From Felis catus (taxonomy: Eukaryota): DNA of 64,000 bases. A program made the position numbers and the translations under genes. Shown one piece after another: positions 20,456-57,718 of this stretch (its first letter is position 1; every line of letters starts with the position of its first letter). The stretch spans positions 59,522,001 to 59,586,000 of the forward strand of contig NC_058368.1 of the NCBI RefSeq assembly GCF_018350175.1, read 5' to 3'. The notes under the pieces were generated by a model. It saw only the letters and a list, made by a program, of their open reading frames with translations. It made no database searches and had not been told where the DNA came from.

Positions 20456-20677
20456 ATTTTTTTTAATTTTTTTTCAGCATTTATTTATTTTTGGGACAGA
20501 GAGAGACAGAGCATGAACGGGGGAGGGGCAGAGAGAGAGGGAGACACAGAATCGGAAAGAGGCTCCAGGCTCTGAGCCATCAGCCCAGAGCCTGACGCGG
20601 GGCTCGAACTCCCGGACCGCGAGATCGTGACCTGGCTGAAGTCGGACGCTTAACTGACTGCACCACCCAGGCGCCCC
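20456..20677 (-). mobile_element. Very young felid Can-SINE inserted at the tail of an older SINE
   Basis: CpG-rich; TSD aagataattt(c/a)tttt at 20441-20455 and 20678-20692. Confidence 0.96.
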
Positions 20678-20692
20678 AAGATAATTTATTTT

Positions 20693-20904
20693 AATTAATT
20701 TTTAATTTTTTTTTGAGAGAGAGAGAGACAGAGACAGAGAGAGTGTGTACAAGTGGAGGAGAGAGGCAGAGGGAGAGAATTGTAACAAGGCTCCATGTTC
20801 ATCATGGTGCCCAATGTCGGGGCTCAATCCCTCAACCCTTGGATCATGACCTGAGCTAAAAGCAAAAGTTGGACACTTAACTGAATGAGCCACCCAGGCA
20901 CCCC
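20693..20904 (-). mobile_element. Older Can-SINE
   Basis: Reverse-complement head gagccacccaggcacccc, GA tract. Confidence 0.92.
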
Positions 20905-20912
20905 TGCCCTGC

Positions 20913-21762
20913 TTTTTCTTTATGTCATCTTCAATTTTTGTCATCACTGTTTTACAGCTTTCAGAGTACGGGCCTTTCACATCTTTGGTTCACATAACCA
21001 AAGTTTCCTAGATACCTTATTGTTTTTGATGCAGTTGTAAATGGGATTGATCCTTTAATTTGTATTTCTGCTGCTTCATTACTGGTGTATAGAAATGCAA
21101 CAGATATCTGTACATTTATTTCGTATCCTGTGACTTTACTGAATTCAGTCATCAGTTCTAGTGGTTTTTTGATGGAGTCTTTCAGGTTTTCTCCATTGAG
21201 TAGTATGTAATCTGCAAACAGTGAAAGTTTTGCTTCTTCCTTGCCAATCTGGATGACTTTTATTTATTTTTGGTGTCTGATTGCTGTGGCTGGGACTTTC
21301 AGTACTATGTTAAATAAAAGTGGTAAGAGTGAACATCCCTCTTGTTCTTGATCATAAAGGAAAAGCTCTCAGTTTTTGCCCATTGAGGATGATATTAGCT
21401 CTGTTTTTTTCATACATGGTCTTTATGATGTTGAGGTGCATTCCCTGTAAACCTAATTTGTTGAGGGTTTTTATCATGAATGAATGTTGTACTTTGTCAA
21501 ATGCTTTCTATGCATCTATTGAGATGATAGATTCTTATTCTTTTTTTTCTATTAATGTGTTGCATTATGTTGATTGATTTGCAAATATTGAATCACATTG
21601 GCAACCCATGAAATAAATCTGACTTGATCATGGTGAATGATTTTTTTTAATGTATGTTGAAATGGAAAAGCATTCCATGCTCATGGATTGGAAGAACAAA
21701 TACTGTTCAATTGTCTATACTACCCAAAGAAATATACACACTTAGTGCAATTCGTGTCAATA
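20913..21762. mobile_element. L1 ORF2 (RT region) fragment with internal inversion: minus 20913-21656, plus ~21658-21762
   Basis: The minus part ends at ...KIEDDIKK and the plus part resumes KWKSIPCSWIGR, the next ORF2 residues. Confidence 0.88.
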
Positions 21763-22740: not shown

Positions 22741-24009
22741 ACAAAGTATTTTTCTTTAGTGGGCCATTATACAGGCCTATGTTTTTATAGGCCTGTTCCT
22801 TATCAGTAATGTGATATATGGTAAGATCAGTGAACCATGTAACTGTGATCCCACTGTTGCTTATCCTTTATGGTAAAATGGGCCTCTTAATCTGAATAAG
22901 GAATTTTGTATGTGCTCAGATTATATTGCTTTGGAAGGGTTTGTGAGTTATTTTCCTATAAAATAGTGCCACAGTTAGGACTCACGAAAAGTGCTACTGA
23001 TAGACTCACCATTCGAGTAGTGACACAGTTAAATAATCCATAGTAAAATTGAGCCCATGTTAAGACAATACACTGCCACCACTCCTGGTATTATGACCGA
23101 TCTCTTCATTTGCCTCTTTGCAAACATTAGGGATATAGGAGTGAGAGGCTGGCTGACTTCACTAGGTCAGTGATGATGTTCACCTGATAGCATTTCTTAC
23201 ATGATGTTGTTTGGTGGATATTAACATGAGACACAAAGGTCATAAGTTTTTATCTGTTCTTATTGGTTCTTTTTCATCTTTTCCCAAGTGTCTTTTTCTA
23301 ATACTCCAGGATTGTACTATTCACATCCCATGCTATTGGGGCTGTTATTTTCCTCTCTAGTGAGATATCAATGTAAAACATGCACTAGGCCACTTCCTCC
23401 TGCAATTTGAGTGATGCAGTGAAATACATCGCTTATACCTCTGCCCACCGAGAAAAGTTTTCTTTACCACATTTCTTCAGACTTTATCCTGAATGGAATG
23501 GAAAGCAATGGCAATCCATTTTGGGCTTCCGTCATTGTATTTAATGTTCTGTATGTGAACTAGGCCCAAGTCTTTTCCTCCCCCTCTGTGGGTTATAGGA
23601 AATATGCCACAAAGCAGTAGATGAGAGTTGAAGGGCAGATCTTACAAAAGTAATGAGTTAAGCTGGATATCTGACCCTTATTTTTTGACATCTACTTAAG
23701 GCCAGTTTCTTTTTTTTTTTTTTTTACTTTCTATTACATTTATTGATTTTATTTTTCCCCCAATTTTCTTTGTGTGTGTTTTTTTTTATATATGAAATTT
23801 ATTGACAAATTGGTTTCCATACAACACCCAGTGCTCATCCCAAAAGGTGCCCTCCTCAATACCCATCACCCACCCTCTCCTCCTTCCCACCCCCCATCAA
23901 CCCTCAGTTTGTTCTCAGCTTTTAACAGTCTCTTATGCTTTGGCTCTCTCCCACTCTAACCTCTTTTTTTTTTTTCCTTCCCTTCCCCCATGGGTTCCTG
24001 TTAAGTTTC

Positions 24010-27000
24010 TCAGGATCCACATAAGAGTGAAACCATATGGTATCTGTCTTTCTCTGTATGGCTTATTTCACTTAGCATCACACTCTCCAGTTCCATCCAC
24101 GTTGCTACAAAAGGGCATATTTCATTTTTTCTCATTGCCACATAGTACTCCATTGTGTATGTAAACCACAATTTCTTTATCCATTCATCAGTTGATGGAC
24201 ATTTAGGCTCTTTCCATAATTTGGCTATTGTTGAGAGTGCTGCTATAAACATTGGGGTACAAGTGGCCCTATGCATCAGTACTCCTGTATCCCTTGGATA
24301 AATTCCTAGTAGTGCTACTGCTGGGTCATAGGTAGGTCTATTTTTAATTTTCTGAGGAACCTCCACACTGCTTTCCAGAGCGGCTGCACCAATTTGCATT
24401 CCCACCAACAGTGCAAGAGGGTTCCCGTCTCTCCACATCCTCTCCAGCATCTAGAGTCTCCTGATTTGTTCATTTTGGCCACTCTGACTGGTGTGAGGTG
24501 ATATCTGAGTGCGGTTTTGATTTGAATTTCCCTGATAAGGAGCGACGCTGAACATCTTTTCATGTGCCTGTTGGCCATCCGGATGTCTTCTTTAGAGAAG
24601 TGTCTATTCATGTTTTCTGCCCATTTCTTCACTGGGTTATTTGTCTTTCGGGTGTGGAGTTTGGTGAGCTCTTTATAGATTTTGGATACTAGCCCTTTGT
24701 CCGATATGTCATTTGCGAATATCTTTTCCCATTCCGTTGGTTGCCTTTTAGTTTTGTTGGTTGTTTCCTTTGCTGTGCAGAAGCTTTTTATCTTCATAAG
24801 GTCCCAGTAATTCACTTTTGCTTTTAATTCCCTTGCCTTTAGGGATGTGTCGAGTAAGAGATTATTACGGCTGAGGTCAGAGAGGTCTTTTCCTGCTTTC
24901 TCCTCTAGGGTTTTGATGGTTTCCTGTCTCACATTTAGGTCCTTTATCCATTTTGAGTTTATTTTTGTGAATGGTGAGAAAGTGGTCTAGTTTCAACCTT
25001 CTGCATGTTGCTGTCCAGTTCTCCCAGCACCATTTGTTAAAGAGGCTGTCTTTTTTCCATTGGATGTTCTTTCCTGCTTTGTCAAAGATGAGTTGGCCAT
25101 ACGTTTGTGGGTCTAGTTCTGGGGTTTCTATTCTATTCCATTGGTCTATGTGTCTGTTTTTGTGCCAATACCATGCTGTCTTGATGATGACATCTTTGTA
25201 GTAGAGGCTAAAGTCTGGGATTGTGATGCCTCCTGCTTTGGTCTTCTTCTTCAAAATTCCTTTGGCTATTCGGGGCCTTTTGTGGTTCCATATGAATTTT
25301 AGGATTGCTTGTTCTAGTTTCGAGAAGAATGCTGGTGCAATTTTGATTGGGATTGCATTGAATGTGTAGATAGCTTTGGGTAGTATTGACATTTTGACAA
25401 TATTTATTTTTCCAATCCATGAGCAGGGAATGTCTTTCCATTTCTTTAAATCTTCTTCAATTTCCTTCATAAGCTTTCTATAGTTTTCAGCATACAGATC
25501 CTTTACATCTTTGGTTAGATTTATTCCTAGGTATTTTATGCTTCTTGGTGCAATTGTGAATGGGATCAGTTTCTTTATTTGTCTTTCTGTTGCTTCATTG
25601 TTAGTGTATAAGAATGCAACTGATTTCTGTACATTGATTTTGTATCCTGCAACTTTGTTGAATTCCTGTATCAGTTCTAGCAAACTTTTGGTGGAGTCTG
25701 TCGGATTTTCCATGTATACTATCATGTCAGCTGCAAAAAGCGAAAGCTTGACTTCATCTTTGCCAATTTTGATGCCTTTGATTTCCTTTTGTTGTCTGAT
25801 TGCTGATGCTAGAACTTCCAGCACTATGTTAAACAGCAGCGGTGAGAGTGGGCATCCTTGTCGTGTTCCTGATCTCAGGGAAAAAGCTCTCAGTTTTTCC
25901 CCGTTGAGGATGATGTTAGCTGTGGGCTTTTCATAAATGGCTTTTATGATCTTTAAGTATGTTCCTTCTATCCCGACTTTCTTGAGGGTTTTTATTAAGA
26001 AAGGGTGCTGGATTTTGTCAAAGGCCTTTTCTGCATCGATTGACAGGATCATATGGTTCTTATCTTTTCTTTTATTAATGTGATGTATCACGTTGATTGA
26101 TTTGCGAATGTTGAACCAACCTTGCATCCCAGGAATGAATCCCACTTGATCATGGTGAATAATTCTTTTTATATGCCGTTGAATTCGATTTGCTAGTATC
26201 TTATTGAGAATTTTTGCATCCATATTCATCAGGGATATTGGCCTGTAGTTCTCTTTTTTTACTGGGTCTCTGTCTGGTTTAGGAATCAAAGTAATACTGG
26301 CTTCAAAGAATGAGTCTGGAAGTTTTGCTTCCCTTTCTATTTCTTGGAATAGCTTGAGAAGGATAGGTATTATCTCTGCTTTAAACGTCTGGTAGAACTC
26401 CCCTGGGAAGCCATCTGGTCCTGGACTCTTATTTGTTGGGAGATTTTTGATAACCGATTCAATTTCATCACTGGTGATGGGTCTGTTCAAGCTTTCTATT
26501 TCCTCCTGATTGAGTTTTGGAAGAGTGTGGGTGTTCAGGAATTTGTCCATTTCTTCCAGGTGGTCCAATTTGTTGGCATATAATTTCTCATAGTATTCCC
26601 TGATAATTGTTTGTATCTCTGAGGGATTGGTTGTAATAATTCCATTTTCATTCATGATTTTATCTATTTGGGTCATTTCCCTTTTCTTTTTGAGAAGCCT
26701 GGCTAGAGGTTTGTCAATGTTGTTTATTTTTTCAAAAAACCAACTCTTGGTTTCGTTGATCTGCTCTACTGTTCTTTTAGATTGTATATTGTTTATTTCT
26801 GCTCTGATCTTTATTCTTTCTTTTCTTCTGCTGGGTTTAGGCTGTCTTTGCTGTTCTGCTTCTATTTCCTTTAGGTGTGCTGTTAGATTTTGTATTTGGG
26901 ATTTTTCTTGTGTCTTGAGATAGGCCTGGATTGCAATGTATTTTCCTCTCAGGACTGCCTTTGCTGCATCCCAAAGCGTTTGGATTGTTGTATTTTCATT

Positions 27001-27831
27001 TTAATCTGTTTCCATCTATTTTTAAACATCTTCCCTAATTGCCTGGTTGACCCATTCATTCTTTAGTAGGGTGTTCTTTAACCTCCATGCTTTTGGAGGT
27101 TTTCCAGACTTTTTTCTGTGGTTGATTTCAAGCTTCATAGCATTGTGGTCTGAAAGTATGCATGGTATAATTTCAATTCTTGTAAACGTATGAAGAGCTG
27201 TTTTGTGACCCAGTATATGATCTATCTTGGAGAATGTTCCATGTACACTCGAGAAGAAAGTATATTCTGTTGCTTTGGGATGTAGAGTTCTAAATATATC
27301 TGTCAAGTCCATCTGATCCAATGTCTCATTCAGGGCCCTTGTTTCTTTATTGACCGTGTGTCTAGATGATCTATCCATTTCTGTAAGTGGGGTATTAAAG
27401 TCCCCTGCAATTACCACATTCTTATCAATAAGGTTGCTTATGTTTATGAGTAATTGTTTTATATATTTGGGGGCTCCGGTATTTGGCACATAGATATTTA
27501 TAATTGTTAGCTCTACCTGATGGATAGACCCTGTAACTATTGTATAATGTCCTTCTTCATCTCTTGTTACAGTCTTTAATTTAAACTCTAGTTTGTCTGA
27601 TATAAGTATGGCTACTCCAGCTTTCTTTTGGCTTCCAGTCGCATGATAAATAGTTCTCCATCCCCTCACTCTCAATCTAAAGGTGTCCTCAGGTCTAAAA
27701 TGAGTCTCTTGTAGACAGCAAATAGATGGGTCTTGTTTTTTTATCCATTCTGATACCCTATGTCTTTTGGTTGGCACATTTAATCCATTTACATTCAGTG
27801 TTATTATAGAAAGATACGGGTTTGGAGTCAT
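24010..27831 (-). pseudogene. L1 ORF2 (APE endonuclease-RT-C-terminal domain), disrupted
   Basis: EN motifs NVNGLN, LQETH, GDFNTP, SDHN; RT motifs YRPISL, QGCPLSP; 3 stops at 27001-27024, FADD->FAAD, frameshifts near 24975 and 24331. Confidence 0.96.
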
Positions 27832-27881
27832 TGTGATGTCTGTATGTTTTATGCTTGTAGTGATGTCTCTGGGACTTTGTC

Positions 27882-28776
27882 TCACAGGGTCCCCCTTAGG
27901 ATCTCTTGTAGGGCTGGTTTAGTGGTGACAAATTCCTTCAGTTTTTGTTTGTTTGGGAAGACCTTTATCTCTCCTTCTATTCTAAATGACAGACTTGCTG
28001 GATAAAGGATTCTCGGCTGCATATTTTTTTCTGTCTAGCACCCTGAAAATCTCATGCCAATTCTTTCTGGCCTGCCAAATTTCAAAAGAGAGATCAGTCA
28101 CAAGTCTTATAGGTCTCCCTTTATATGTGAGGGCACGTTTATCCCTTGCTGCTTTCAGAATTTTCTCTTTATCCTTGTATTTTGCCAGTTTCCCTATGAT
28201 ATGTCGTGCAGAAGATCGCTTCAAGTTACGTCTGAAGGGAGTTCTCTGTTCCTCTTGGATTTCAGTGCCTTTTTCCTTCCCCAGTTCAGGGAAGTTCTCA
28301 GCTATTATTTCTTCAAGTACCCCTTCAGCACCTTTCCCTCTCTCTTCCTCCTCGGGGATACCAATTATGCGTATATTATTTCTTTTTAGTGTATCACTTA
28401 GTTCTCTAATTTTCCCCTCATACTCCTGGATTTTTTTATCTCTCTTTTTCTCAGCTTCCTCTTTTTCCATAACTTTATCTTCTAGTTCACCTATTCTCTC
28501 CTCTGCCTCTTCAAGCCGAGCCGTGGTGGTTTCCATTTTGTTATGCATTTCGTTTAAAGCGTTTTTCAGCTCCTCGTGACTGTTCCTTAGTCCCTTGATC
28601 TCTGTAGCAAGAGATTCTCTGCTGTCCTGTATACTGTTTTCAAGCCCAGCGATTAATTTTATGACTATTATTCTAAATTCACTTTCTGTTATATTATTTA
28701 AATCCTTTTTGATCAGCTCATTAGCTGTTGTTATTTCCTGGAGATTCTTCTGAGGGGAATTCTTCCGCTTGGTCAT
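27882..28776 (-). pseudogene. L1 ORF1 (coiled coil-RRM-CTD), frameshifted
   Basis: MTKRKNSPQK... coiled coil, NIRIIGIPE, KILKAAR; one extra T in the run at 28024-28030 compared with the copy at ~50220 shifts the C-terminus. Confidence 0.95.
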
Positions 28777-29703
28777 TTTGGATAGTCCCTGGCGTGGTGA
28801 GGACCTGCAGGGCACTTCCCCTGTGCTGTGGTGTATAACTGGAGTTGGTGGGTGGGGCCGCAGTCAGACCTGATGTCTGCCCCCAGCCCACCGCTGGGGC
28901 CACAGTCAGACTGGTGTGTGCCTTCTCTTCCCCTCTCCTAGGGGCGGGATTCACTGTGGGGTGGTGTGGCCCGTCTGGGCTACTTGCACACTGCCAGGCT
29001 TGTGATGCTGGGGATCTGGCGTATTAGCTGGGGTGGGTAGGCAAGGTGCACAGGGGCAGGAGGGGCAGGCTTAGATCGCTTCTCCTTAAGTGATCCACTT
29101 CAGGAGGGGCCGTGTGGCAGCGGGAGGGAGTCAGATCTGCTGCCGGAGGTTTGGCTCCGCAAAAGCAGAGTTGGGTGTTTGCGTGGAGCGAGCAAGATCC
29201 CTGGCAGGAACTGGTTCACTTTGGGATTTTGGCTGGGGGATGGGCGGGGGAGATGGCGCTGGCCAGCGCCTTTGTTCCCCGCCAAACTGAGCTCTGTCCT
29301 CAGGGGGCTCAGCAGCTCTCCCTCCCTTTGTCCTCCAGCCTTCCGGCTTCCTGAGCAGAGCTGGTAACTTATGACCTCCCAGACGCTAAGTCGCACTTGT
29401 TGTGGGAACACAGTCCATCAGGCCTCTCCGCTTTTGCCAGCCAGATTCGGGGGCTCTGCTTGGCCGGCGAGCCGCCCCTCCACCCCCGCTCCCTCCCGCC
29501 AGTCCGTGGAGCGCGCACCGCCTCGCCGCCCTTCCTACCCTCTTCCGTGGGCCTCTCGTCTGTGTTTGGCTCCGGCGACTCCGTTCTGCTAATCCTCTGG
29601 TGGTTTTCTGGGTTATTTAGGCAGGTGTAGGTGGAATCTAAGTGATCAGCAGGACGTGCGGTGAGCCCAGTGTCCTCCTAAGCCGCCATCTTGCAAACCC
29701 CTC
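28777..29703 (-). promoter_or_regulatory. L1 5'UTR internal promoter, CpG-rich, with YY1-type site
   Basis: GC/CpG-rich in an AT-rich window; minus-strand AAGATGGCG at 29684-29692, 11 nt from the 5' end. Confidence 0.85.
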
Positions 29704-31924
29704 CTTAAGGCCAGTTTCAAATGGACCACTTCCATGCTATGGAGGACCTCCACCATGCTTGCCTAAAATTATCAATCTATGGTTCAATTAACAGTGTCAC
29801 AATATGAAGTTGTAGTTACTTATTCAATACATGCCCAATGATAAAATATACAATCTCTACCAAGCCCCAGTGTCATAGGAGCTGTTTTTAAAAAGGACTT
29901 TTTTTTTTTTTTTTGCCACAGAGGGTGTGGTCTTGCTGTAGCACTCTAGGAACCTGAGAGCCTGCTCTCCTACTGAGTTTAACACAAAAGCCTCACAGTG
30001 TGAATGTCAGCAAAACACATCTATGTCACTTTAGTTCTGTTGGTTCCATGGTCCTAAAGTTAAGCAGCATGTTCCATAGCCTGTTTTTACTACAGAGAAC
30101 TCTTTTGCTCTAGATCACATTATGAACTAACAGAATATCTTGTCACATATTTAATAGTTTAGGTGAGAATAGTAGACTCATGTATGGTTTATACTGTCTT
30201 AAAATCCAAAGAAGCGCATTAAGTATTTGTTTCTCAGTGGTAGAAGTCAGTTTCTTGAGAATAGAAAGAGCTTTATATTAAAGAGGACGTCTTAAGATAA
30301 TCCAAAATTCTGTACCTATAAAACTTCACTGATTTCAAACATTTTCAACTTTTTAGACATCATCTTGACACTCTAGCAAATGTGTTGTTTACTAGAGAAT
30401 TTAAGGTTTTGCCACTTCCTACTCATCTGATCAAAAATAGCATAATATCATTAACACAGAGTATTGGTATGATTAAGGACCCTACATAATACAGAAACTA
30501 TTATGTCCAGGAACAGAAGAACAAACAGAGCCCTGCAGCCAGGACACTGAAGGTGCACTACTGAATTCCCTTAAAAAATATATATGTATATTATATATAA
30601 TATACATATAATGCATATATATACATACAGTATGTATACATACATACAGTAGTGAAATACATTGTATACACATGTAATACAATGAATATATGTAACAATA
30701 TATATAATCTTTCTTCTTAAAGAGGATTAAGAAAAAAAAATTCACCAAACTAAAATCTACATGCAAAATATCACAGGCTGTACTGATCTGCTCCATACAA
30801 AATACAACATCTGGTACAACAGCATTTTGGGCTATCCAGTGATTAATGTTATGGTAATCTTCTATTTTCCATAGAAATTCAGATAGTAGATTAAAAGGAA
30901 CAACAGTGGATACATGTCTCTCTGCATCTTTAAAATCTTTTTATGTTTTCTCTGTAAATATATCTGTAAGTATATCTAGAATGCTTTGTATATACTATCT
31001 TGGCCAGAGGATTGGTAGTTTTAGGGGCTTCCTTCCAGGTCCTTCTAGCACAAAGATCCAATGTGAGAACCAATGCGAGGCTTCTTTCATTTGTTTAATA
31101 TATCTATTTCATATAGACACTCAAGAATTGGAAAATCTATTGTGCAAGAATACATTAGACACCCTATATGATAATCTCAGTCCAAAACCACTTATTACTT
31201 GATGTTCATATGTCAATCCAAAAAATTATTTTTGCATTTCAAGTAATTTAGTTTCTGTGTCAGCTCAAATATTATATGTAAAAATAATCCAAAAGTCCTA
31301 GTGATTGTCATTTTTTTCTGATACACAGTTGCATTAACAAATTATAAAAGCCCCTTTTGGAGAAGAATTAGAGGCATCGCATTTTATTTCATGACTTACG
31401 ATATTTTATATCTTAAAATTGATGATTTAGATCCTTCCTTAAGAAGACCTTTCCACACTTCAAGCAATGGAAAATGACTTAGGTTTGGAAGCCTTGTGAA
31501 GCAGTAGTATTTATTACCATGAAAGCTTGGATCAGCCTTCTGCTCACTAGTTTTTCTGACCTTCTGTCTTATCTGTCTTATCCCTATCTTACCCCTTATT
31601 AGAATGCTGTTTTCTAATAGATACCTTCAGAATAAAGCATGTTCAATGCCACTCCTGCCTTGGCCATTATGGGAATATTTATCTTCCTTTGACATTTATG
31701 TGCTGGTATCTGGACTATGAAGTTCTAGAATCCCATCACTCTCATTGATATTTGGGATACCAGTTAAATATAATATCTCTGAGTGTTATTTTAAACTTAC
31801 AGTACATAATTAGAAACTAACTTCTCAAAGATACTGTATTATGCCACACTTTACACACTTTATTATGTTAAGGAAGGGAATATCTTTTTGGTTCTCCCAG
31901 GAAACAGATTAAGTGGTGAGAACC

Positions 31925-36287: not shown

Positions 36288-36504
36288 ATTATTTGTTTAT
36301 TTTAGTCCTAGTATAGTTAACATACATTGTGATATTAGTTTCAGGTGTACAATATAGTGATTGAACAATTCTATACATCAGGATAAGTGTACACCTTATC
36401 CCCTTCATGTATTTCACCTGTCTGCCACTAACTTTTCCCCTGGTAACCATCAGATTGTTCTCTATAGTTAGTCTAGTTTTTGGTTTGACTCTTTTTTCTT
36501 TGCT
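36288..36504 (-). mobile_element. Carnivore-type L1 3'UTR fragment
   Basis: tatagttaacatac...tattagtttcaggtgtacaatatagtgatt...ctggtaaccatcag. Confidence 0.8.
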
Positions 36505-36701
36505 CATTTATTTTTGAGAGAGAGAGAGAGACAGAGTGCGAGCAGGGGAGGAGCAGAGAGAGTGAGACACAGAATCCGAAGCAGGCTCCAGGCTCTGAGC
36601 TGTCAGCACAGAGCCCAAAGCGGGACTCGAACTCACTGACCATGAGGTCATGACCTGAGCCGAAGTTGGATGCTTAACTGACTGAGCCACCCAGGCGCCC
36701 C
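36505..36701 (-). mobile_element. Can-SINE
   Basis: Reverse-complement SINE. Confidence 0.94.
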
Positions 36702-36769
36702 TCTTCTATCTATTTTTATTGTTTAATTTTTATTTAAAATTTTTTGTTAGTTTCAGGTTTTTATTTAAA

Positions 36770-36969
36770 ATTTTTTTAACGTTTATTCATTTTTTGATAG
36801 ACCGTGAGTGGGGGAGGGGCAGAGAGAGAGGGAGACACAGAATCCGAAGCAGCCTCCCGGCTCTGAACTGACAGCACAGAGCCTGATGCAGGGCTCGAAC
36901 TCACGGACCGTGAGAACATGACCTGAGCTGAAGTCTGATGCCCAACCGAGTGAGCCACCCAGGTGCCCC
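36770..36969 (-). mobile_element. Can-SINE in the L1 tail
   Basis: 17-bp TSD tcaggtttttatttaaa at 36753-36769 and 36971-36987. Confidence 0.95.
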
Positions 36970-39900
36970 ATCAGGTTTTTATTTAAATTCCAGTTAGTTA
37001 ACATAGTGTAATATCAGTTTCAGGTATAAAGTTTAGTGGTTTATCGCTGCTATACAACACTCAGTGCTCATCACAACTGCCCTCCTTAATGCCCATCACC
37101 CATTTAACCCATCCCCCTGCCCATCTCCCTTCTAACAATCCTCAGTTTGTTCTCTATAGTTAAGAGTCTGTTTTATGGTCTGCCTCTTTCTTTTTTTCCT
37201 TCCATGTTCGTTTGTTTTATTTCTTAAATTCGACATATGAGTGAAATCATATGGTATTTGTCTTTGACTGACTTACTTCACTTAGCATAATACTCTCTAG
37301 CTCCATCCATGTTATTGCAAATGGAAAGGTTTCATTCTCTTTGATGGCTGAGTATATTCCATTGTGTATATATACTACCGCTTTTTTATCCATTCATCAG
37401 TCTATAGACATTTGGGCTGTTCCTATAATTTGGCTGTCATTGATAATGCTGCTATAAACATTGGGGTGTAAGTATCCCTTTGAATTAGTATTTTTGTGTC
37501 CTTTGGGTAAATACCTAGTAGTCCAATTGATGATGGGTCATACAGTAGTTCTATTTTTAACTTTATTAGGAACCTCCATATTGTTTTTCAGAGTGGCTGT
37601 GCCAGTTTGCATTCCCACCAATAGTTGGCATCCTCACTGATAATTGGTTGTTTCCTGTGTTATTAATTGTAGCCATTCTGACAGGTGGGAGGTGATATCT
37701 CCTTGTAGTTCTGATTTGTATTTACCTGATGATGAGTGATGCTGAGCATCTTTCCATGTGTCTGTTAGCTATCTGTGTGTCTTTGGAAAAATGCCTATTT
37801 ATGTTTTTTGCTCAGTTTTTAACTGGATTATTTGGTTTTTGGGTGTTGGCTTTGGTAAGTTCTTTATATATTTTGGATACTAACCCTTTATCAGATATGT
37901 CATTTGCAAAATCTTCCATTCAAAGGTTGCCTTTTGGTTTTATTGATTGTTTCCCTCTCTGTGCAGAAGCTTTTTATCTTGATGGAATCCCAATAGTTTG
38001 TTTTTGTTTTACTTTCCCTTGCCTGAGGAGACATCTAGAAAAATTCACCTACAGCCAATATTAAAGAAATTACTATCTGTGGTTTCTTCTAAAACTTTTA
38101 TGGTTTTACGTCTCATATTTAGGCATATAATCCATTTTCAGCTTATTTTTGTGTATTATGTGAGAAAGCCTTTCAGTTTCATTCTTTTGCGTGTAGCTGT
38201 CCAATTTTCTCAACACTGTGACACTTTTTCCTGTTGCATATTTTTGCCTCCTTTGTCATAGATTAATGGACCATAAAATCATGGGTTTATTTCTGAGCTC
38301 TCTATTCTGTTCCACTGATCTGTTCTATTTTTGTGCTAGTACCATGCTGTTTTGATTACTATAGCTTTGTAGTGTATCTTGAAATCTGGGATTGTGATAC
38401 TTCCAGTTTTGTTTTTCTTGTTCAAGATTGCTTTGGCTGTTTGGAGTCTTTTGTGGTTGCATACAAATTTTAAGATTTTTTATTCTAGTTCTCTGAAAAC
38501 TGTTTTTGGTATTTTGATAGGGATTGCATTGAATGTGTAGATTGCTTTTGGTAGTATGGACATTTTAACAATAATTTTTCTGCCAAACCATGAGCATGGA
38601 ATATCTTGCTATTTCTTTGTGTTCTTCAGTTTCTTTCATCAATCCTATATTGTTTTGAAAGTACAGGTGTCTCACTTCCTTGGTTAAGTTTATTCCTAGA
38701 TATTCTATTATTTTGGTGTAATTGTAAATGGGATTGTTTTCTTAAATACTCTTTCTGCTGCTTCGTTATAATGTCTAGAAATACAGTTAATTTCTGTATA
38801 TTGATTTTCTATCCTGAAACTTTGCTGAATTCATTTATCAAGTCTAGTAGTTTTTTTGATGGAGTCTTGGGTTTTCTGTATATAATATCATGCCATCTGC
38901 AGATTGTGAAAGTTTTACTCCTTCCTTGCCAATTTGGATGCTTTTTATTTCTTTTTCTTGTCTACTACTATCGCTAGGACTTCCAGTACTATATTGAATA
39001 AAAGAGGTAAGAGTGGACATCCTTGTCTTGTTTCTCATGTTAGGGGAAAAGCTCTGTTTTCCTCATTGACTATGATATTCACTGTGGGTTTTCATATATG
39101 GCCTTTATTATGTTGAGGAATGTTCTGTTTCCTCACAACCTACTATATTGAGAGGTGTTTTTTTTTTTATAATTATTGGATGTTGTACCTTTTCAAATAC
39201 TTTTTCAATATCTATTGAAATGATCATATGATTTTTATCCTTTCCTTTTTTAATGTGATGTATCACATTGATTGCAATATGGATCTACCTTTGCATCTCT
39301 GGAATAAATCTTACTTGATCATGCTGAATGATTTTTTTAATATATTGTTGGATTTGGTTTGCTAATATTTTATTGATGGTTTTTGCATTTGTGTTCATCA
39401 TAGATATTGGTTTTTAATTCTCTCTCTCTGTTTGTAGTATATTTTCTGATTTTGGTAGAAGGGTAATGTTGGCCTCAGAATGAATTTGAAAGCTTTCTTT
39501 CCTCTTCTATTTCTTAAAATAGTTTGAGAAGAATAGGTATTAAAGCTTTAAATGTTTGGTAGAATTAACCTGTGAAACTTCTGGTGCTAGACTTTTGTTT
39601 GTTGGGAGTTTTTTGATTACTGTTTCAATTCCATTGCTGGAAGTTGGTCTGTTCTAATATTCTGTTTCTCCCTTGCTAAGTTTTGGGAGGTTATTATGTT
39701 TCTAGAAACTTATCCATTTCTTCTAGGGGCCAAATTTGTTGGCATATAACTTTCATAATATTATTTTGTAATCTTTTGTATTTCTGTCATGTCGATTGTT
39801 TTTTCTCTTTCATTTTTTATTTTGTTTATTGGAGTTCTCCTCTCTCTCTCTCTCTCATTCTCACTCTCTCTTTTGTGAAACTGGCTGAAAGTTTATCAAT

Positions 39901-44546: not shown

Positions 44547-45046
44547 AAAGTATGTATTGTATGTGAGACACTTAGAATTTGATCTGGTGAAATTATGTAC
44601 AAAAATTAGCTACATAATTATTGTGTTTTTCTGATATGATTCTCATGGAGCTTATCAATTATTTAAGCATTTCCCTCAAATACATTTTATATCTTTAAAG
44701 TTTGTAGTATCCAGAAAGTTGTGGTTTTGCTGACTAATGAATGATAGCTGGTATACTGGGCCTTTTCGTGCTACAGATAGATTCATTAAAGAACTTTTTA
44801 TACAATCTTCTAAAAATAATCTTTTGTTTTTAGCTTATTCTGTCAGAGAAAGAAACATAACATAGGTTTTGTTGTTTCCACTGATATTTATCTGTTCTTA
44901 AAATCTGGATTTTTGGGGTTTTTTTGATTTTCATAGATTTATTATGAGTGTTAAGAAACATAACACATGCTTAGATGCAAGTTCTTCTATTTTGTTTTAT
45001 GTTTATGTTGCAAGTATTTTTCATTCCTTTTATCATTGACTTCTTT

Positions 45047-48000
45047 TTTCTACTATGAAATTTATTGTCAAATTGGTTTCCATACAACACCCAGTGCTCA
45101 TCCCAACAGGTGCCCTCCTCAATGCCCATCAACCACTTTTCCCTCACTCCCACTGCCATCAGCCCTCAGTTTATTCTCAGTTTTTAAGAGTCTCCTATGG
45201 TTTGCTTCCTTCCCTCTCTGTAACTTTTTTACCCCTTCCCCTTCCCCATGGGTTTCTGTTAAGTTTCTCAGAATCCCCAGAAGAATGAAAACATATGGTA
45301 TCTGTCTTTCTCTGTATGGCTTATTTCACTTAGCATCACACTCTCCAGTTCCATCCACGTTGCTACAAAGGGCCATATTTCATTCTTTCTCATTGCCAAG
45401 TAGTATTCCATTGTATATATAAACCACATCTTCTTTATCAATTTTCAGTTGATGGACATTTAGGCTCTTTCCATAATTTGGCTATTGTTGAAAGTGCCAC
45501 TGTAAACATAGGGTACAAGTGCCCCTATGCATCAGCACTCCTGTATCCCTTGGGTCAATTCCTAGCAGTGCTTTTGCTGGGTCATAGGGTAGATCTATTT
45601 TTAATTTTTTGAAGAACCTCCACACTGTTTTCCAGAGCAGCTGCACCAGTTTGCATTCCCACCAACAGTGCAAGAGTGTCCCCGCTTGTCCACATCCTCT
45701 CCAGCATGTATAGTCTCCTGATTCGTTCATTTTAGCCACTCTGAATGGCATGAGGAGGTATCTCAGTGTGGTTTTGATTTGTATTTCCCTGATGAGGAGT
45801 GATGTTGAGCATCTTTGCATGTGCCTGTTGGCCATCTGGATGTCTTCTTTAGAAAACTGTCTATGCATGTGTTCTGCCCATTTCTTTACTGGATTATTTG
45901 TTTTTCAGGTGTGAAGTTTGGTGAGTTCTTTATAGTTTTGGATACTAGCCCTTTCTCTGATATGTCATTTGCAAATATCTTTTCCCATTCCGTTGGTTGC
46001 CTTTTAGTTTTGTTGATTGTTCCCTTTGCAGTGCAGAAGCTTTTTATCTTCGTGAGGTCCCAATTGTTCATGTTTGCTTTTAATTCCCTTGCCTTTGGAG
46101 ATGTGTTAAGTAAGAAATTGCTGTGGCTGAGGTCAGAGATGTTTTTTCCTGCTTTCTCCTCTAGGGTTTTGATGGTTTCCTGTCTCACATTTAGGTCCTT
46201 TATCCATTTTGAGTTTATTTTTGTGAATGGTGTAAGAAAGCGGTCCAGTTTCATTCTTCTGCATGTTGCTGTCCAGTTCTCCCAGCACCATTTGTTAAAG
46301 AGACTGTCTTTTTTCCATTGGATATTCTTTCCTATTTTGTCAAAGATTAGTTGGCCATACTTTTGTGGGACCAATTCTGGAGTCTCTATTCTATTCCATT
46401 GGTCTACGTGTCTGTTTTTGTGCTAATATAATGCTCTCTTGATGATGACAGCTTTGTAGTAGAGGCTAAAGTCTGGGATTGTGATGCCTCCTGCTTTGTT
46501 CTTCTTCAAAATTACTTTGGCTATTCAGGGTCTTTTGTGGTTCCATACAAATTTTAGGATTGCTTGTTCTAGCTTCGAGAAGAATGCTGGTGCAATTTTG
46601 ATTGGTATTGCATTGGATGTGTAGATTGCTTTCGGTAGTATTGACATTTTAACAATATTTATTCTTTCAATCCATGAGCACGGAATGTTTTTCCATTCTT
46701 TGTATCTTCTTCAATTACCTTCATAAGCTTTCTATAGTTTTCAGCATACAGATCTTTTACATCTTTGGTTAGATGTATTCCTAGGTATTTTATGCTTCTT
46801 GGTGCAATTGTGAATGGGACCAGTTTCTTTATTTGTCTTTATGTTGCTTCATGATTATTGTATAAGAACGCAACTGATTTCTGTACATTAATTTTTGTAT
46901 CCTGCAACTTTGCTGAATTCACGTATCAGTTCTAGCAGACTTTTGGTGGAGTCTATCGGGTTTTCCATGTATACTGTCATGTCATCTGCAAAAAGTGAAA
47001 GCTTGACTTTATCTTTGCCAAGTTTGAGGCCTTTGATTTACTTTTGTTGTATTGCTGATGCTAGCACTTCCAACGCTATGTTAAACAACAGAGGTGAGAG
47101 TGGACATCCCTGTCGTGTTCCTGATCTCAGGGGGAAAGCTCTCAGTTTTTTTCCCATTGAGGATGATATTAGCTGTGGGCTTTTCATAAATGGCTTTTAT
47201 GATGTTTAAGTATGTTCAATCTATCCTGACTTTCTTGAGGTTTTTATTAAGAAAGGATGCTGAATTTTGTCAAATGCTTTTTCTGCATCAATTGACAGGA
47301 TCATAAGGTTCTTTTCTTTTATTAATGTGATGTATCACATTGATTGATTTGCGAATATTGACCAGCCCTGCAGCCCAGGGATGAATCCCACTTGATCATG
47401 GTGAATATTCTTTTTATATGCTGCTGGATTCGATTTGCTAGTATCTTGGTGAGACTTTTTGCATCCATATCCATCAGGGTATTGGCCTGTAGTTCTCTTT
47501 TTTTGCTGGGTCTGTCTGGTTTGGGAATCAAAGTATTGCTGGCTTCATAGAATGAGTCTGGAAGTTTTCCTTCCCTTTCTATTTTTTGGAACAGCTTGAT
47601 AAGGATAGGTATTATCTCTGCTTTAAATGTCTGGTAGAATTCCCCAGGGATGACATCTGGTCCTAGACTCTTATTTGTTGGGAGATTTTTGATAACTAAT
47701 TCAATTTCCTCACTGGTTATGGGTCTCTTCAGTTTTTCTATTTCTGCCTGTTTGAGTTTTCGATTGTGTGGGTGCTTAGTAATTTGTCCATTTTGTCCAG
47801 GTTGTCTAGTTTGTTGGCATATAATTTTTCATAGTATTTCCTGATAATTGCTTGTATTTCTGAGGGATTGGCTGTAATATTTCCATTTTCATTCATGATT
47901 TTATCTATTTGGGTCCTCTCCCTTTTCTTTTTTGAGAAGCCTGGCTAGAGGTTTATCAATTTTGTTTATCTTTTTTAAAAAAAACAACTCGTGGTTTCAT

Positions 48001-48917
48001 TGATCTGCTTTACAGTTTTTTTAGATTCTATATTGTGTATTTCTGCTCTGATCTTTATTATTTCTCTTCTTCTGATGGGTTTCGGGTGTCTTTGCTGTTC
48101 TGTTTCTATATCCTTTTAGGTGTGCTGTTAGATTTTGTATTTGGGATTTTTCTTGTTTCTTGAAATAGGCTTGGATTGCAATGTATTTTCCTCTCAGGAC
48201 TGCCTTTGCTGCATCCCAAAGGGTTTGGATTGTTGTATTTTCATTTTCATTTGTTTCCATATATTTTTTAATTTCTTCTCTAATTGCCTGGTTGACCCAT
48301 TCATTCTTTAGTAGGGTGTTCTTTATCCTCCATGCTTTTGGAGATTTTCCAGACTCTTCTGTGGTTGATTTCAAGTCATAGCATTGTGGTCTGAAAGTGT
48401 ACATGGTACGATCTCAATTCTTATATACTTATGAAGGGCTGTTTTGTGACCTAGTATGTGATCTATCTTGGAGAATGTTCCATGTGCACTTGAGAAGAAA
48501 GTATATTCTGTTGCTTTGGGATGCAGAGTTCTAAATATATCTGTCAAGTCCATCTGATCCAATGTATCATTCAGGGCCCTTGTTTCCTTATTGATCCTGT
48601 GTCTAGATGATCTATCCATTGTTTTTATTGGGTATTAAAGACCCCTGCAATTACCACATTCTTGTCAGTAAGGTTGCTTATGTTTGTGAGTAATTGTTTT
48701 ATATATTTGGGGGCTCTCATATTCAGCGCATAGACATTTATAATTGTTAGCTCTTCCTGATGGATAGACCCTGTAATTATATAATGCCCTTCATCTCTTG
48801 TTATAGCCTTTAATTTAAAGTCTAGTTTTTCTGTTTTAGGTATAGCTACTCCAGCCTTCTTTTGACTCCCAGTAGCATGATAGATAATTCTCCATCCCCT
48901 CACTTTCTTTTTCTTTT

Positions 48918-48963
<46 letters not shown>

Positions 48964-51555
48964 TTTTTTTTATTTTTTAGTATATGAAATTTATTGTCAA
49001 ATTGGTTTCCATACAACACCCAGTGCTCATCCCCAAAGATGCCCTCTTCCCCATCAACCCACCCATCACCACTCTCCACTCCCTCCCACCCCCCCATCAA
49101 CCCTCAGTTTGTTCTCAGTTTTTAAGTGTCTCTTATGCTTTGGTTCTCTCCCACTCTAACTTTTTTTTTCCTTCCCCTCCCCCATGGGTTTCTGTTAAGT
49201 TTCTCAGTATCCACATAAGAGTGGACACATATGGTGTCTTTCTCTGTATGACTTATTTCACTTAGCATAACATTCTCCAGTTCCCTCCACGTTGCTACAA
49301 AGGGCCATATTTCATTCTTTCTCATTGCCACGTAGTACTCCATTGTGTATATAAACCACAATTTCTTTATCCATTCATCAGCTGATGGACATTTAGGCTC
49401 TTTCCATAATTTGGCTATTGTTGAGAGTGCTGCTATAAACATTGGGGTACAAGTGGCCCTATGCATCAGGACTCCTGTATCCCTTGGGTAAATTGCTAGC
49501 AGTGCTACTGCTGGGTCATAGGGTAGGTCTATTTTTAATTTTTTGAGGAACTTCCACACTGTTTTCCAGAGTGGCTGCACCAATTTGCATTCCCACCAAC
49601 AGTGCAAGAGGGTTCCTGTTTCTCCACATCCTGTCCAGCATCTATAGTCTCCTGATTTGTTCATTTTGGCCGCTCTGACTGACATGAGGTGATATCTGAG
49701 TGTGGTTTTGATTTGTAGTTCCCTGATGAGGAGTGACATTGAGCATCTTTTCATGTGCCTGTTGTCCGTCTGGATGTCTTCTTTAGAGAAGTGTCTATTC
49801 ATGTTTTCTGCCCATTTCTTCACTGGATTATTTGTTTTTCAGGTGTCCATCCCCTCACTTTCAATCTCAAGGTGTCCTCTGGTCCAAAATGAGTTTCTGT
49901 AGACAGCAAATATATGGGTCTTGTTTTTTGATCCATTCTGATCCCCTATGTGTTTTGGTTGGAGCATTTTGTCTATGTACATTCAGTGTTATTATTGAAG
50001 ATATGGGTTTAGAGTTATTGTGATGTGTGTAGGTTTCATGCTTGTAGTGGTGTCTCTGGTACTTTGTGGTCCTTGCACCATTTCACTCAAAGAATCCCCC
50101 TTAGGATCTCTTGTTTAGTGGTGATGAATTCCTTCAGTTTTTGTTTGTTTGGGAAAACCTTTACGTCTCCTTATATTCTGAATGACAGACTTGCTGGATA
50201 AAGGATTCTTGGCTGCATATTTTTTCTGTTCATCACATTGAAGATTTTCTGCCATTCCTTTCTGGCCTGCCAAGTTTCAGTAGATAGGTCTGCCACTAGT
50301 CTTATGGGTCTCCCTTTGTAAGTTAGGGCCTGTTTATCCCTAGCTGCTTTCAGAATTCTCTTTATCCATGTATTTTGCCAGTTTCACTATGATATGTCCA
50401 TGATATGTCACTATGATATCACATGCAGAAGTTTGATTCAAGTTACGTCTAAAGGGAGTTCTCTGTGCCTCTTGGATTTTAATGCCTATTTCCTTCCCCA
50501 GTTCGGGGATGTTCTCAGCTATGATTTGTTCAAGTACACCTTCAGCCCATTTCTCTCTCTCTTCTTCTTCTTCTGGAATTCCTGTGATACGGATATTTTT
50601 CTGTTTCATTGTATCACTTAGTTCTCTAATTCTCCCCTCATAGTCCTGGCTTTTTTTTCCTTTTTCTTTTTCTCAGCTTCCTCTTTTTCCATAATTTTAC
50701 CTTCTAATTCACCTATTCTCTCCTCTGCCTCTTCAGTCCGTGCTATGGCCACCTCCTTTTTATTTTACACCCCATTTATAGCATTTTTAGATCCTCATTA
50801 CTATTTTTTAGTCCCTGGATCTCTGTAGCAATAGATTCTCTGCTGTCCTCTATGCTTTTTTCAAGCCCAGCAATTAATTTTATGACTATTATTCTAAATT
50901 CTTGTTCCATAATATTGCTTAAATCATTTCGATCAATTCGTTAGTCTCACTACTTCCTGGAGTTTCTTTTCAGAATTCTTCCGTTTCATCGTTTTGGTTA
51001 TTCCCTGCGGTAGCTCTGAACTGCAGGGCACTTCCCCTGTGCTTTCCGGAGAAACTTGTGTTGGAGGCAGGGCCACAGGCAGACCCAATGTCTGCCCTCA
51101 GCTCACCTCTGGGGCCACAGTCAGACTGGTGTATACCTTATCTTCCCCTCTCCCAGGGGCAGGACTCACTGTGAAGTGGTGTGGCCCCTGTCTGGGCTGC
51201 TTGCACAATGCCAGAATTGTGGTGCTGCTTCGATTGGATCTGGCCAAGTGCGTATTAGACGGGGTGGATCTGCAAGGTGCATAGGCACAGGAGGTGCAGT
51301 ATTAGGTAGCTTTGCAATCTGTGGTTCCCTGACGTAGGGGCCTTACAGCACTGGGAGGGAGGCAGGCCCGTTCCAGGGATGGATCCACAGAAGCACAGCA
51401 TTGGGCGTTTGCGTGGTACAAGGAAGTTCAGTGATGGGAACTGCTTCCCTTTGGAATTTCATCAGGGGGATGGGAAAGGGAAATGAAGATTGCCAGTGCC
51501 TTTGTTCCCCCACCGAAGTCTGTCCTTCTGGGGCTCAACAACTGTCCTTCCCACT

Positions 51556-51598
<43 letters not shown>

Positions 51599-51966
51599 TG
51601 TCTGAGAGCAGAGCTGTTGACTTTTAACATTCCAGATATTAAGTTCCTCTGGCTGTCAGAACTCACACAGTCTGGCCCCTCAGCTTTTGCAATCCAGACT
51701 TCGGGGGCTCTGCCTTGCTGGGTGGGATGCCCCTCCATGGCCCTGGCTCCCTCCGGCCAGTCCATATAGCATGCACCGCCTCTCCACACTTCCTACCCTC
51801 TTCCGTGGGCCTTTTGTCTATGCTTGGCTCCAGAGAGTCCGTTCTGCTAGTCTTCTGGAAGTTTTCTGGGTTATTTAGGCAGATATGGGTGGAATCTAAG
51901 TGATCAGCAGGACAAGGTGAGTCCAGCGTCCTCCTATGCTGCCATCTTCCTCCTATCCCCTGTTTC
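45047..51966 (-). mobile_element. Full-length felid L1 of intermediate age, disrupted, with a nested L1
   Basis: Collinear with the 23710-29703 element; 16-bp TSD tatcattgacttcttt at 45031-45046 and 51967-51982; many frameshifts, CpG decay, ORF2 ATG->ATA at 50016-50018. Confidence 0.96.
48908..49845 (-). mobile_element. 5'-truncated young L1 nested in the EN-coding region of the older L1; tail converted to (TTTC)n
   Basis: 17-bp TSD tccatcccctcactttc at 48891-48907 and 49846-49862; ORF 49122..49823 is the ORF2 C-terminus. Confidence 0.96.
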
Positions 51967-52494
51967 TATCATTGACTTCTTTAGTTTATCATTAGTTGTG
52001 ATTAGTTGTGTGGATTCATACACTTCTGTGCTTTGTTTTTACGCTAAGAGACTTATTTGATGTTCTTTCCTATTACTAATTTGTTTCTTCATATTTTAGT
52101 CCCCATCTTTATAATATTTCAATTAGTCCTCATTTTATGCTAGTATATATTAAAATGTAATAAATCATTTATACTCACATTGACAAACACCTTGGAAATC
52201 TTGATCAGAAAGTAGACATTAAACATTCAACATTCAGTAAATTGCAAAAAAAAATCTTATTTCAGGTATAAATCTAATCATGGGATCACCATGGCTAAAT
52301 AATTACTAAGTACTCTGTTAACTTTGGAAAACATCAAATGTGTTCCGGTTTCTATTTCTTTCCAATTTTATCATGGGTTATTTCATGATAGGGATCATTA
52401 CTTCTTTTATATTTTTTATTCAGTTACGTTTTATCAGTACCGAGTACATGAGACATATAAAATAATCTATAACATTTAAAAATACTTTATATTA

Positions 52495-55690: not shown

Positions 55691-56075
55691 AAATACTTTT
55701 TTTAGAGTTGTTTTTAATTATGTCAGCCAAAAGTATATGAATATAAGATCTCCAGGAAGTCATATGCTTTAGTCTCTAAAACACACATAAAATTGCTTAC
55801 TTTGTGATATTACTGTAAAAGTAAAAATAGAAATAACAATTATGAATAGAAACCTACTGTATCCCTAACTCTTTTAACAATACTTTTCAAATGTTAGCTC
55901 ATTTAATTCTCATAGATATTATAAAGTAAATAATATTGTAATTTCTATTTTGAATATAGAGACATTCAGAAATAGAAGTCAAGTGTGTTTCCAAAAGTCA
56001 CACAATCAATATCAGAATTAAAAGTGGAATCATAAAAATCTGACAAAAGAATTTCTGCCAGCAAGCACTAAGCTA

Positions 56076-57718
56076 TCAAGTTAGCCAGCCTCCATGATGG
56101 TCCCAATAATGATTGCCTCATGATAATGACATTGTGTAGTCTCCTACACTGCACCAGGGCTGATTGTCCTGTGTGACTGATGTAATATGAAAGAGATTTG
56201 GTTGCTGGAATCCCTTGCTCTGGTGGGGGCTTGCTTCCATGCTGAGATGACACTCAAGTAGCCCATAAAGATGTTCACACTGAGAGGAAATAAATCTCCT
56301 AGCAAACTGCCAGCACCACCTTGCCAAGTAGGTGAAGTTATTTCTGGGTGACTTCTGTGAATTAATTCTTCAGATGCATATATTCCTTAAAAAGAATGCA
56401 ATCCAACCGATATCTACTGTAATTCCATGGAGACCTCTAACCAGAACTTTCTAGTCAACCAACAGTAAAGTACTCAACCCACAGAAACTATATAAGACAA
56501 TCAGCAATTCTTGGTATTTCAAGCCAGCATGTTTTTTTTTAATTAATGTTTATTTATTTTGTGAAAGAGAGCTGGGAGGGGCAGAGAGAGAGGGAGAGAG
56601 AGAATCCCAACCCGGCTTCATGCTGTCAGCACAGAGCCCAACATGGGGATTGATCTCAGAAACCATGAGATCATGACCTGCGCTGAAATCAAGAGTTGGA
56701 CGTTTAACCAATTGAGCCACCCAAGCACCCCGCACCAAATGTGTTTAAAAAGTCATTTCATTATTCATCAGCAATACTTAATTACTAAGAATTATTGAGA
56801 TAAATTTCATGAATCAATGAATGTTCAAACCCCTTCAATAATCTCCATGATTATTGAATCTATCAATATGTCCACGAGGAGTCTGAATGTCTTATCCAAA
56901 TAAGATGATTCTCCAACAGATTTTTTAAAAAGATTTGGCTCACATTATGGACGTCTTTTTTTTCTTTTTCTCCTTTTTTCTTTCTTGTTTTTTTAATATG
57001 AAATTTATTGTCAAATTGGTTTCCATACAGCGCCTAGTGCTCATCCCAACAGGTGCCCTCCTCAATGCCCATCACCCACTTTCCCCTTCCCCCCACTCCC
57101 CATCAACCCTCAGTTTGTTCTCAATATTTAGGAGTCTCTTATGGTTTGCCTCCTTCCCTCTCTATAACTTCTTTTTTCCCCCTTCTGCTCCCCCATGGTC
57201 TTCTGTTAAGTTTCTCAGGATCCACATATGAGTGAAAACATATGGTATCTGTCTTTCTCTGCCTTACTTATTTCACTTAGCATAACACTCTCCAGTTCCA
57301 TCCACATTGCTACAAATGGCCAGATTTCATTCTTTCTCATTGCCAAATAGTATTCCATTGTATATATAAACCACATCTTCTTTATCCATTCGTCAGTTGG
57401 TGGACATTTAGGCTCTTTCCATAATTTGGCTATTGTTGAAAGTGCTATAACCATTGGGGTACAAGTGCCCCTGTGCATCAGCACTCCTATATCCCTTGGG
57501 TCAATTCCAAGCAGTGCTATTGCTGGGTCGTAGGGTAGACCTATTTTTAATTTTTTGAGGAACCTCCACACTATTTTCCAGAGCAGCTGCACCACTTTGC
57601 ATTCCCACCAACAGTGCAAGAGGGTTCCTGCTTGTCCACATCCTCTCCAGCATCTATAGTCGCCTGTAAGCCAGCATGTTTTAAAGAGATTTGTTATGCA
57701 GCAATAATATGTAATATA
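56076..57718 (+). mobile_element. MLT1F-like MaLR LTR split by a composite L1 insertion
   Basis: tagccagcctccatgatggtccc start; the LTR end aagccagcatgtttt-aaagagatttgttatgcagcaata resumes after the insertion. Confidence 0.75.
56536..57667 (-). mobile_element. Composite insertion: truncated L1 (56956-57667) + unique flank (56732-56955) + Can-SINE (56541-56731)
   Basis: A single 15-bp TSD aagccagcatgtttt at 56521-56535 and 57668-57682; nick site TTTT/AA. Confidence 0.93.

Follow-up and report, generated by a model that had tools for sequence, protein, structure and literature searches.

A feline L1 3' transduction that very likely carried an older Can-SINE as cargo

A 1132-bp insertion in the 64-kb window of cat DNA (the window being the whole stretch of 64,000 nucleotides that was analysed) is interpreted as an L1 3' transduction produced in one event, with a probability of roughly 0.9. 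The reading is well supported because a single target-site duplication (TSD) in the correct polarity, two A-tails and a second copy of the transduced spacer were all found. It is a real, ordinary L1 3' transduction, a single event of a known process. What is new here is the second spacer copy that backs the transduction, very likely with an older SINE as cargo. All coordinates are those of the window, and published work is cited by accession. The features of the locus are as follows.

56080..56520, plus strand: left part of the host, resembling an old MLT1-type solo LTR
56521..56535, no strand: left TSD copy, its T-run end lying against the SINE tail (priming end)
56536..56731, minus strand: whole Can-SINE of feliform type, bearing motifs of subfamily I / subtype IA
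56732-56746, minus strand: putative 5' half, now orphaned, of the TSD with which the SINE first inserted, with no 3' copy
56747-56751, minus strand: endonuclease-type TTTTT/AAAC motif preceding the orphan half
56732..56955, minus strand: transduced spacer, 224 bp, without AATAAA or ATTAAA
56956..56994, minus strand: decayed internal poly(A) tail of the source L1
56995..57666, minus strand: 5'-truncated felid L1 with the C-terminal part of ORF2 and the 3' UTR, assigned by alignment
57667..57667, minus strand: a single additional base at the 5' junction, either untemplated or mutated
57668-57682, no strand: right TSD copy, with the AA of the TTTT/AA nick extending to 57684
57685..57715, plus strand: right part of the host, similar to the 3' end of that MLT1-type LTR

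Read along the minus strand, the locus consists of host, TSD (57682-57668), the extra base, L1 (57666-56995) and an interrupted A-tail (56994-56956), followed by spacer (56955-56732), Can-SINE (56731-56536), TSD (56535-56521) and host. The 15-bp TSD is exact at 15/15 positions, and its copies, at 56521 and 57668, are the only ones in the 64-kb window. AA comes directly after the right copy on the plus strand, giving a TTTT/AA nick site. The T-end of the left copy adjoins the poly(T) of the SINE and the opposite TSD end adjoins the 5' truncation of the L1. The insert inside the TSD measures 1132 bp. Under the established L1 mechanism, this polarity of TSD and nick is the trace expected of one target-primed event begun at the SINE tail. 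When compared with the hallmarks of L1 insertion given in PMC13141329, the locus displayed a single TSD, whose 15 bp fall within the range of ~7–20 bp, TTTT/AA polarity, an intact L1 3' end with an internal A-tail, and a second spacer copy. The first-pass annotation had described one 15-bp TSD with a TTTT/AA nick bracketing the L1, its decayed tail, 224 bp and the SINE, and had read the whole as an L1 3' transduction. All of its coordinates agreed with ours, and the one TSD in the right polarity, the two A-tails and the second genomic copy of the spacer uphold its reading.

That the L1, spacer and SINE are unrelated and that the 15-mer pair arose by chance is effectively refuted. The probability of such a pair is 1.3e-9 per site under an iid model and ~1e-7 even with 100 junction offsets allowed, both 15-mers lie exactly at element ends with the right nick polarity, and the spacer has a diverged copy elsewhere.

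The L1 portion (56995-57666) was 86–90% identical to three other L1 3' ends of the window. One of these three relatives, ~6 kb in length, contains Pfam reverse transcriptase, endonuclease and L1 ORF1 domains, and the ORF2 C-terminal piece of the insert was 81% identical to it over 114 amino acids. A Pfam search of that piece itself returned 0 families, and the L1 identity is therefore based on the alignment to the window L1s together with the domains of the relative and the 81% amino acid match. The ORF2 stop lies at 57217-57215 and the L1's own AATAAA at 57009, with an ATTAAA at 56997, where the L1 tail begins. Among the window L1s, the non-CpG distance was 8.0% to the nearest sibling and 11–12% to the two others. 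The age of the event was set at ~4–4.5% per lineage because the sibling distance of 8.0% matches the 9% seen between spacer copies. The transduction is an old felid event, apparently fixed to judge by the share of sampled words in 20 of the 24 runs listed (below).

No other copy of the spacer was found inside the 64-kb window. In sequencing data, 0.89–0.94 of the words sampled from 55950-57000 were present in 20 of the 24 runs listed (12 studies, two organism labels), and the reads of four runs (X2, X18, X21 and X22) were compared with the window. Run X18 yielded two contigs over exactly 56759-56951. The local-copy contig carried 0 differences at a depth of 13, its flank having a depth of 12.4 in a single depth record. 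The second-copy contig (record 8) carried 17 substitutions and 5 gap letters (4 indels) at a depth of 6.62; it is confined to 56759-56951 and ends within the spacer on both sides. In X22, which belongs to a separate study, a lone read at 56856 and 56867 carries both deletions of the X18 second copy; bin depths of 0.94 in X22 also fit a 2-nt gap, in a row that lists 0 reads. Only the local spacer copy was seen in X2, in an unbroken contig, and X21 had zero depth across 56778-56885. The second copy was thus seen in 2/4 runs (X18 and X22), and the two copies are 9.0% diverged (95% CI 5.4–14.1). Such a second copy is the predicted outcome of a transduction, and we infer that it is the source. The claim that the 224 bp are unique DNA consequently held for the length and for single copy number within the window, and failed against the second, ~9%-diverged copy in the read data.

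The second spacer version is unlikely to be an allele because of its divergence (17 substitutions and 4 indels) and because the local copy alone is at full depth. In X18 the second copy reaches only some half of the local copy's depth, and in X2 it was not seen, which could reflect a sex chromosome, polymorphism or dropout. The second copy may extend as far as the SINE head on another contig of X18, one with a 1-nt gap at 56736, as a hint only. Record 9 of X2 (96 bp of the 3' half of the SINE, 8 substitutions, 3 gap letters) could possibly be the source SINE and was not counted because it is inseparable from paralogs. The spacer was also considered as an RNA gene or MITE and rejected: it had no match in Rfam, where the 2 matches at E up to 1 lay elsewhere and fell far under the gathering score, and its fold z was -1.09. 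A 35-nt, 71% inverted repeat was taken as chance. An exact 26-base spacer pattern gave 0 matches in metagenome contigs.

The second-copy contig stops within the spacer, leaving its neighbours out of view, and this would also suit a chimera made by template switching from an RNA of spacer and SINE to the L1 RNA tail, or a second spacer copy that is a later duplicate of the present locus. Both run against the layout of L1, complete 3' end, decayed tail, flank and second tail, which is that of a standard transduction. The decayed internal tail also implies an earlier residence in a genome, and the sole X18 flank piece compared is a single-depth record (12.4). We consider this pair of readings very improbable and retain the single transduction event.

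The host flanks, which resemble an MLT1-type (MaLR) solo LTR, would rejoin cleanly on removal of the insert, and neither flank has a second copy inside the 64-kb window. In run X21, from an organism designated C, a 1365-nt contig matched 56262-56526 at the cost of 45 substitutions and 2 gaps and, judging from this alignment, is probably the ortholog of the left host flank at ~17% divergence. The alignment ends within the left TSD; the contig continues for at least 416 letters and was read only up to the match at 56526. No match of this contig to the SINE or spacer appeared among the pieces listed. The contig is compatible with an empty site and does not separate the rival explanations, because each of them allows for an outgroup without the SINE. 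Organism C is probably a non-felid carnivore, because it is SINE-rich and its depth on 56598-56633 is very low, ~30 times below that of the other contig runs.

The SINE types of the window mark the genome as feliform, and the motifs of the transduced SINE fit feliform subfamily I, subtype IA. It contains TCTTGAT at position 38, a B box with A in place of T and the CA and GGGA variants, and it does not contain GGCTCGG; the B box was given more weight than the missing GGCTCGG because younger copies in the window are also without an exact GGCTCGG. The text of PMC4084570 prints the subfamily I motif (near position 36) as TCCTGAT, a spelling absent from the SINE, and its primer 1 reads TCTTGAT. That study places 26 subfamily I loci in the feliform ancestor and another 2 in feliforms outside the felids, and the subfamily is reported as quiescent since early Feliformia and not active in Felidae. 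Most same-type copies have a longer pyrimidine tract than that of the SINE (56572-56564), in which a TCTTT starting at 56568, upstream of the AATAAA, is a Pol III terminator-like motif.

Non-CpG distances between the SINE and 7 same-type copies ranged from 12.7 to 24.5%. The SINE differed from the majority of these 7 copies at 12/99 non-CpG sites, giving P=0.0017 against an age of 4.5% per lineage and P=0.044 against 7% per lineage, with the caveat that the majority is a mixture of masters, which inflates the distance. The old subfamily motifs and the divergence above that of the event suggest that the SINE is probably older than the transduction, which favours cargo.

A duplication belonging to the SINE itself was not detected. 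Its head flank scored 5 against the sequence behind its tail (null mean 6.7), and its short A-tail, 5 A followed by 4 in common with the TSD, enters the L1-shared TSD directly and so leaves no room for a 3' TSD of its own. The missing TSD is weak evidence alone because 7/20 of the other SINEs surveyed also score 8.5 or less, 9/20 being above the 95th percentile of the null for a TSD of their own. A decayed SINE TSD was rejected as a candidate, the best gapped score being 6 compared with 5–11 for 20 unrelated tails. The TTTTT/AAAC motif lies exactly 15 nt ahead of the SINE head, against a background of 1.7–3.1%, and 56732-56746 looks like the remaining 5' half of the SINE's original TSD. The first-pass annotation had stated that the SINE has no TSD of its own and had proposed that it moved as Pol II cargo of the L1. 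The low head-flank score and the tail abutting the L1-shared TSD agree with the former statement; the old subfamily, the divergence above that of the event and the orphan 5' TSD half with its endonuclease motif speak indirectly for the latter, and we regard the SINE as a highly probable pre-existing cargo of the transduction.

The SINE's own endonuclease motif and 5' TSD half would also be expected if the L1 had moved the spacer (and more), the SINE had inserted later via Pol III, and its 3' TSD and the remainder had then been deleted. The 7/20 other SINEs without a detectable TSD are in keeping with this, and the second-copy contig covers only 56759-56951 of the spacer, with no SINE in view. 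Such an order of events is nevertheless most unlikely, given that subfamily I is reported inactive in Felidae (PMC4084570), that the SINE copy is more diverged than the event and that a deletion is still required; the X18 contig with the gap at 56736, if it is the second copy reaching the SINE head, would hint in the same direction.

With the SINE taken as cargo, the following course is proposed. A full-length felid L1 would have landed in front of an older subfamily I Can-SINE on the same strand, ~224 bp upstream of it. Pol II would have passed the L1's own AATAAA and A-tail and then the spacer. Cleavage and polyadenylation of the transcript would have followed at the overlapping AATAAA pair of the SINE, which is the next canonical signal, so that the RNA would end in the SINE tail, short of the SINE's 3' TSD. 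L1 ORF2p would then have nicked TTTT/AA at the new site and primed on the 3' A-tract, and reverse transcription would have copied the SINE, the spacer, the old tail and then the L1, truncating after 672 nt of it. One 15-bp TSD around 1132 bp would be the outcome.

The presence of the SINE at the source before the L1 event and the role of its AATAAA as terminator are what we infer from this arrangement. The overlapping pair lies at 56558-56553 and 56554-56549 on the minus strand; the AATAAA and A-rich tail that had been placed at 56549-56558 is accordingly found there, starting at 56558 and 56554. It is the first canonical hexamer downstream of the L1's AATAAA (57009) and tail, and the distances of its two members to the end of the insert are 23 and 19 nt, compared with a modal hexamer-to-end distance of 22–24 bp in dog 3'UTRs (PMC11699766). 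This geometry of 19–23 nt is not discriminating, because any short-tailed Can-SINE has it; an AATAAA at such a tail position was present in 19/22 of the window SINEs. That the SINE's AATAAA ended the transcript is the best explanation, to which we give slightly better than even odds, and internal priming or a later deletion in the A-tract would leave the same anatomy as polyadenylation at the SINE.

No added poly(A) is visible in the terminal tail beyond the SINE's own short A-tail. So very short a tail is in favour of an RNA that ran beyond the SINE and was reverse transcribed from internal priming on the SINE A-tract, the SINE being cargo and priming site, not terminator. Both TSDs start with an A-run and then CA, which would let the nicked end anneal to the A-tract and on into the first two bases of the TSD presumed at the source, and internal priming is a described route (PMC5402677). 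We consider it unlikely, however. A shared CA is not rare, at least 2 letters being common to 16/78 TSD pairs in the window (expected rate 0.12), and old tails shrink anyway, as in the L1 at 45k with its 6-A tail. The Can-SINE AATAAA is reported as a dog 3'UTR end (PMC11699766), and the internally primed Alu of PMC5402677 was without an endonuclease site, whereas the present site is canonical.

Identical anatomy, orphan 5' TSD half included, would likewise be left by a transduction that was first longer, containing the SINE with both TSDs, more flank and a poly(A), and that later lost its 3' part through a deletion from A-tail to poly(A). The age of the event (~4–4.5% per lineage) suits this sequence of steps, as does the SVA_F1 precedent, in which an Alu was carried and termination lay downstream of the Alu's TSD. 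It needs a second, precise event for which the sequence gives no call, and we judge it improbable. Polyadenylation at the SINE signal is retained as the preferred explanation.

Several other repeats of the window were noted. A ~6-kb minus-strand L1 at 23695-29718 has a 15-bp TSD (23695, 29704) and ORF1, endonuclease and reverse transcriptase domains in broken frames. Its 3' end carries ~50 nt of extra sequence with AATAAA and then a second tail of 16 A, and it is probably a second, short 3' transduction of the window. The L1 at 45031-51981 lies within a 15-bp repeat (45031, 51967), and nested in it is a truncated L1 with a TSD at 48891 and 49846 whose tail is now a (GAAA)n tract. At 20440-20930, the A-tail of an older SINE (head 20904) houses a young SINE (head 20677) on the same strand with a TSD of its own, the two forming a SINE-in-SINE-tail dimer. 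Two same-strand SINEs (heads 36969 and 36701) lie in or beside the 3' end of an older L1 at 36440-37150, where a 15-mer present at both 36455 and 37147 is possibly a further TSD. From 24000 to 52000 a long, strongly negative AT skew arises from several L1s, all on the minus strand; an intron of a gene on the plus strand, or clustering by chance, may be the reason.

On its own, the single event carries little weight and serves as a clean teaching case. Repeat annotation splits this one insertion into three parts and misdates the arrival of the SINE. A broader proposal, with one case as its basis, is that sense-strand Can-SINE tails are a main genome-wide stop for L1 read-through in carnivores, so that a good part of 3' transductions would be SINE-ended and would recopy dead subfamilies; we regard it as doubtful. 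If true, pipelines that discard repeat-containing transductions would undercount the SINE-ended ones, the low transduction rate of dogs (~1.8% versus ~15% in humans, PMC13141329) could be partly explained, and some SINEs of old subfamilies would occupy sites of much younger age. The dog study demands 25 unmasked bases and at least 70% L1 (PMC13141329). If SINE-ended transductions were common in carnivores, transduction counts and SINE-based dating would be biased, and Can-SINE poly(A) signals would limit how much flank L1 moves.

Partnered L1 3' transduction is a textbook process. Such events have been catalogued in dogs (PMC13141329, PMC13103737, PMC13756887) and mice (PMC5538555, PMC5932605). 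Every ingredient of the present case has its own published precedent: L1 can mobilise 3' flanking DNA, repeats can travel as cargo, and the poly(A) signals of Can-SINEs can terminate Pol II transcripts. In the literature searched, which had most subscription papers outside it, no L1 transduction was reported to end in the tail of a Can-SINE, and the same case was not found in the available parts of PMC9311842, PMC3024322 and bioRxiv 2021.07.12.451456. The cat insert resembles the catalogued partnered transductions (PMC13141329, PMC13103737, PMC5538555, PMC5932605) in its L1 3' end, internal A-tail, flank and second A-tail, and in having one TSD, a TTTT/AA nick and a flank with a second genomic copy. 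It differs from them in being old and apparently fixed and in that its transduced part ends in a whole SINE.

Other known systems share parts of the event. In the mouse Lama2 dy-Pas allele (PMC6466679), an L1 likewise carried another repeat, an IAP LTR, and the insert was polyadenylated inside that repeat; the terminator there was an LTR within the source L1 and not a downstream SINE, and the source was identified. In the SVA_F1 H10_1 group with its 3'-transduced AluSp (PMC3287187, PMC12593883), a whole older SINE was again the Pol II cargo of an upstream retroelement, but the driver was an SVA, not an L1, and termination was downstream of the Alu 3' TSD, whereas the cat insert stops at the SINE tail and keeps the 5' TSD half only. 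Transposon sequence was reported within 49% of 109 SVA 3' transductions (PMC12593883).

For the SINE itself, the comparison lies with canid and feliform elements. At dog 3'UTR ends the Can-SINE AATAAA shows a roughly tenfold enrichment (PMC11699766), and it is functional in Pol III transcripts (PMC9599045); as is proposed for the cat insert, sense-strand overlapping AATAAA in the SINE tail marks the transcript end. The evidence of those two studies comes from dog gene 3'UTRs by position statistics and from Pol III transcripts, in contrast to L1 read-through RNA, and their subfamilies are canid, not felid. CanSINE subfamily I, subtype IA (PMC4084570), shares with the cat copy TCTTGAT at position 38, the A of the B box, the CA and GGGA variants and the lack of GGCTCGG. 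Unlike the members of that subfamily, the cat copy appears to have been brought to where it now lies by passive transport, long after subfamily quiescence.
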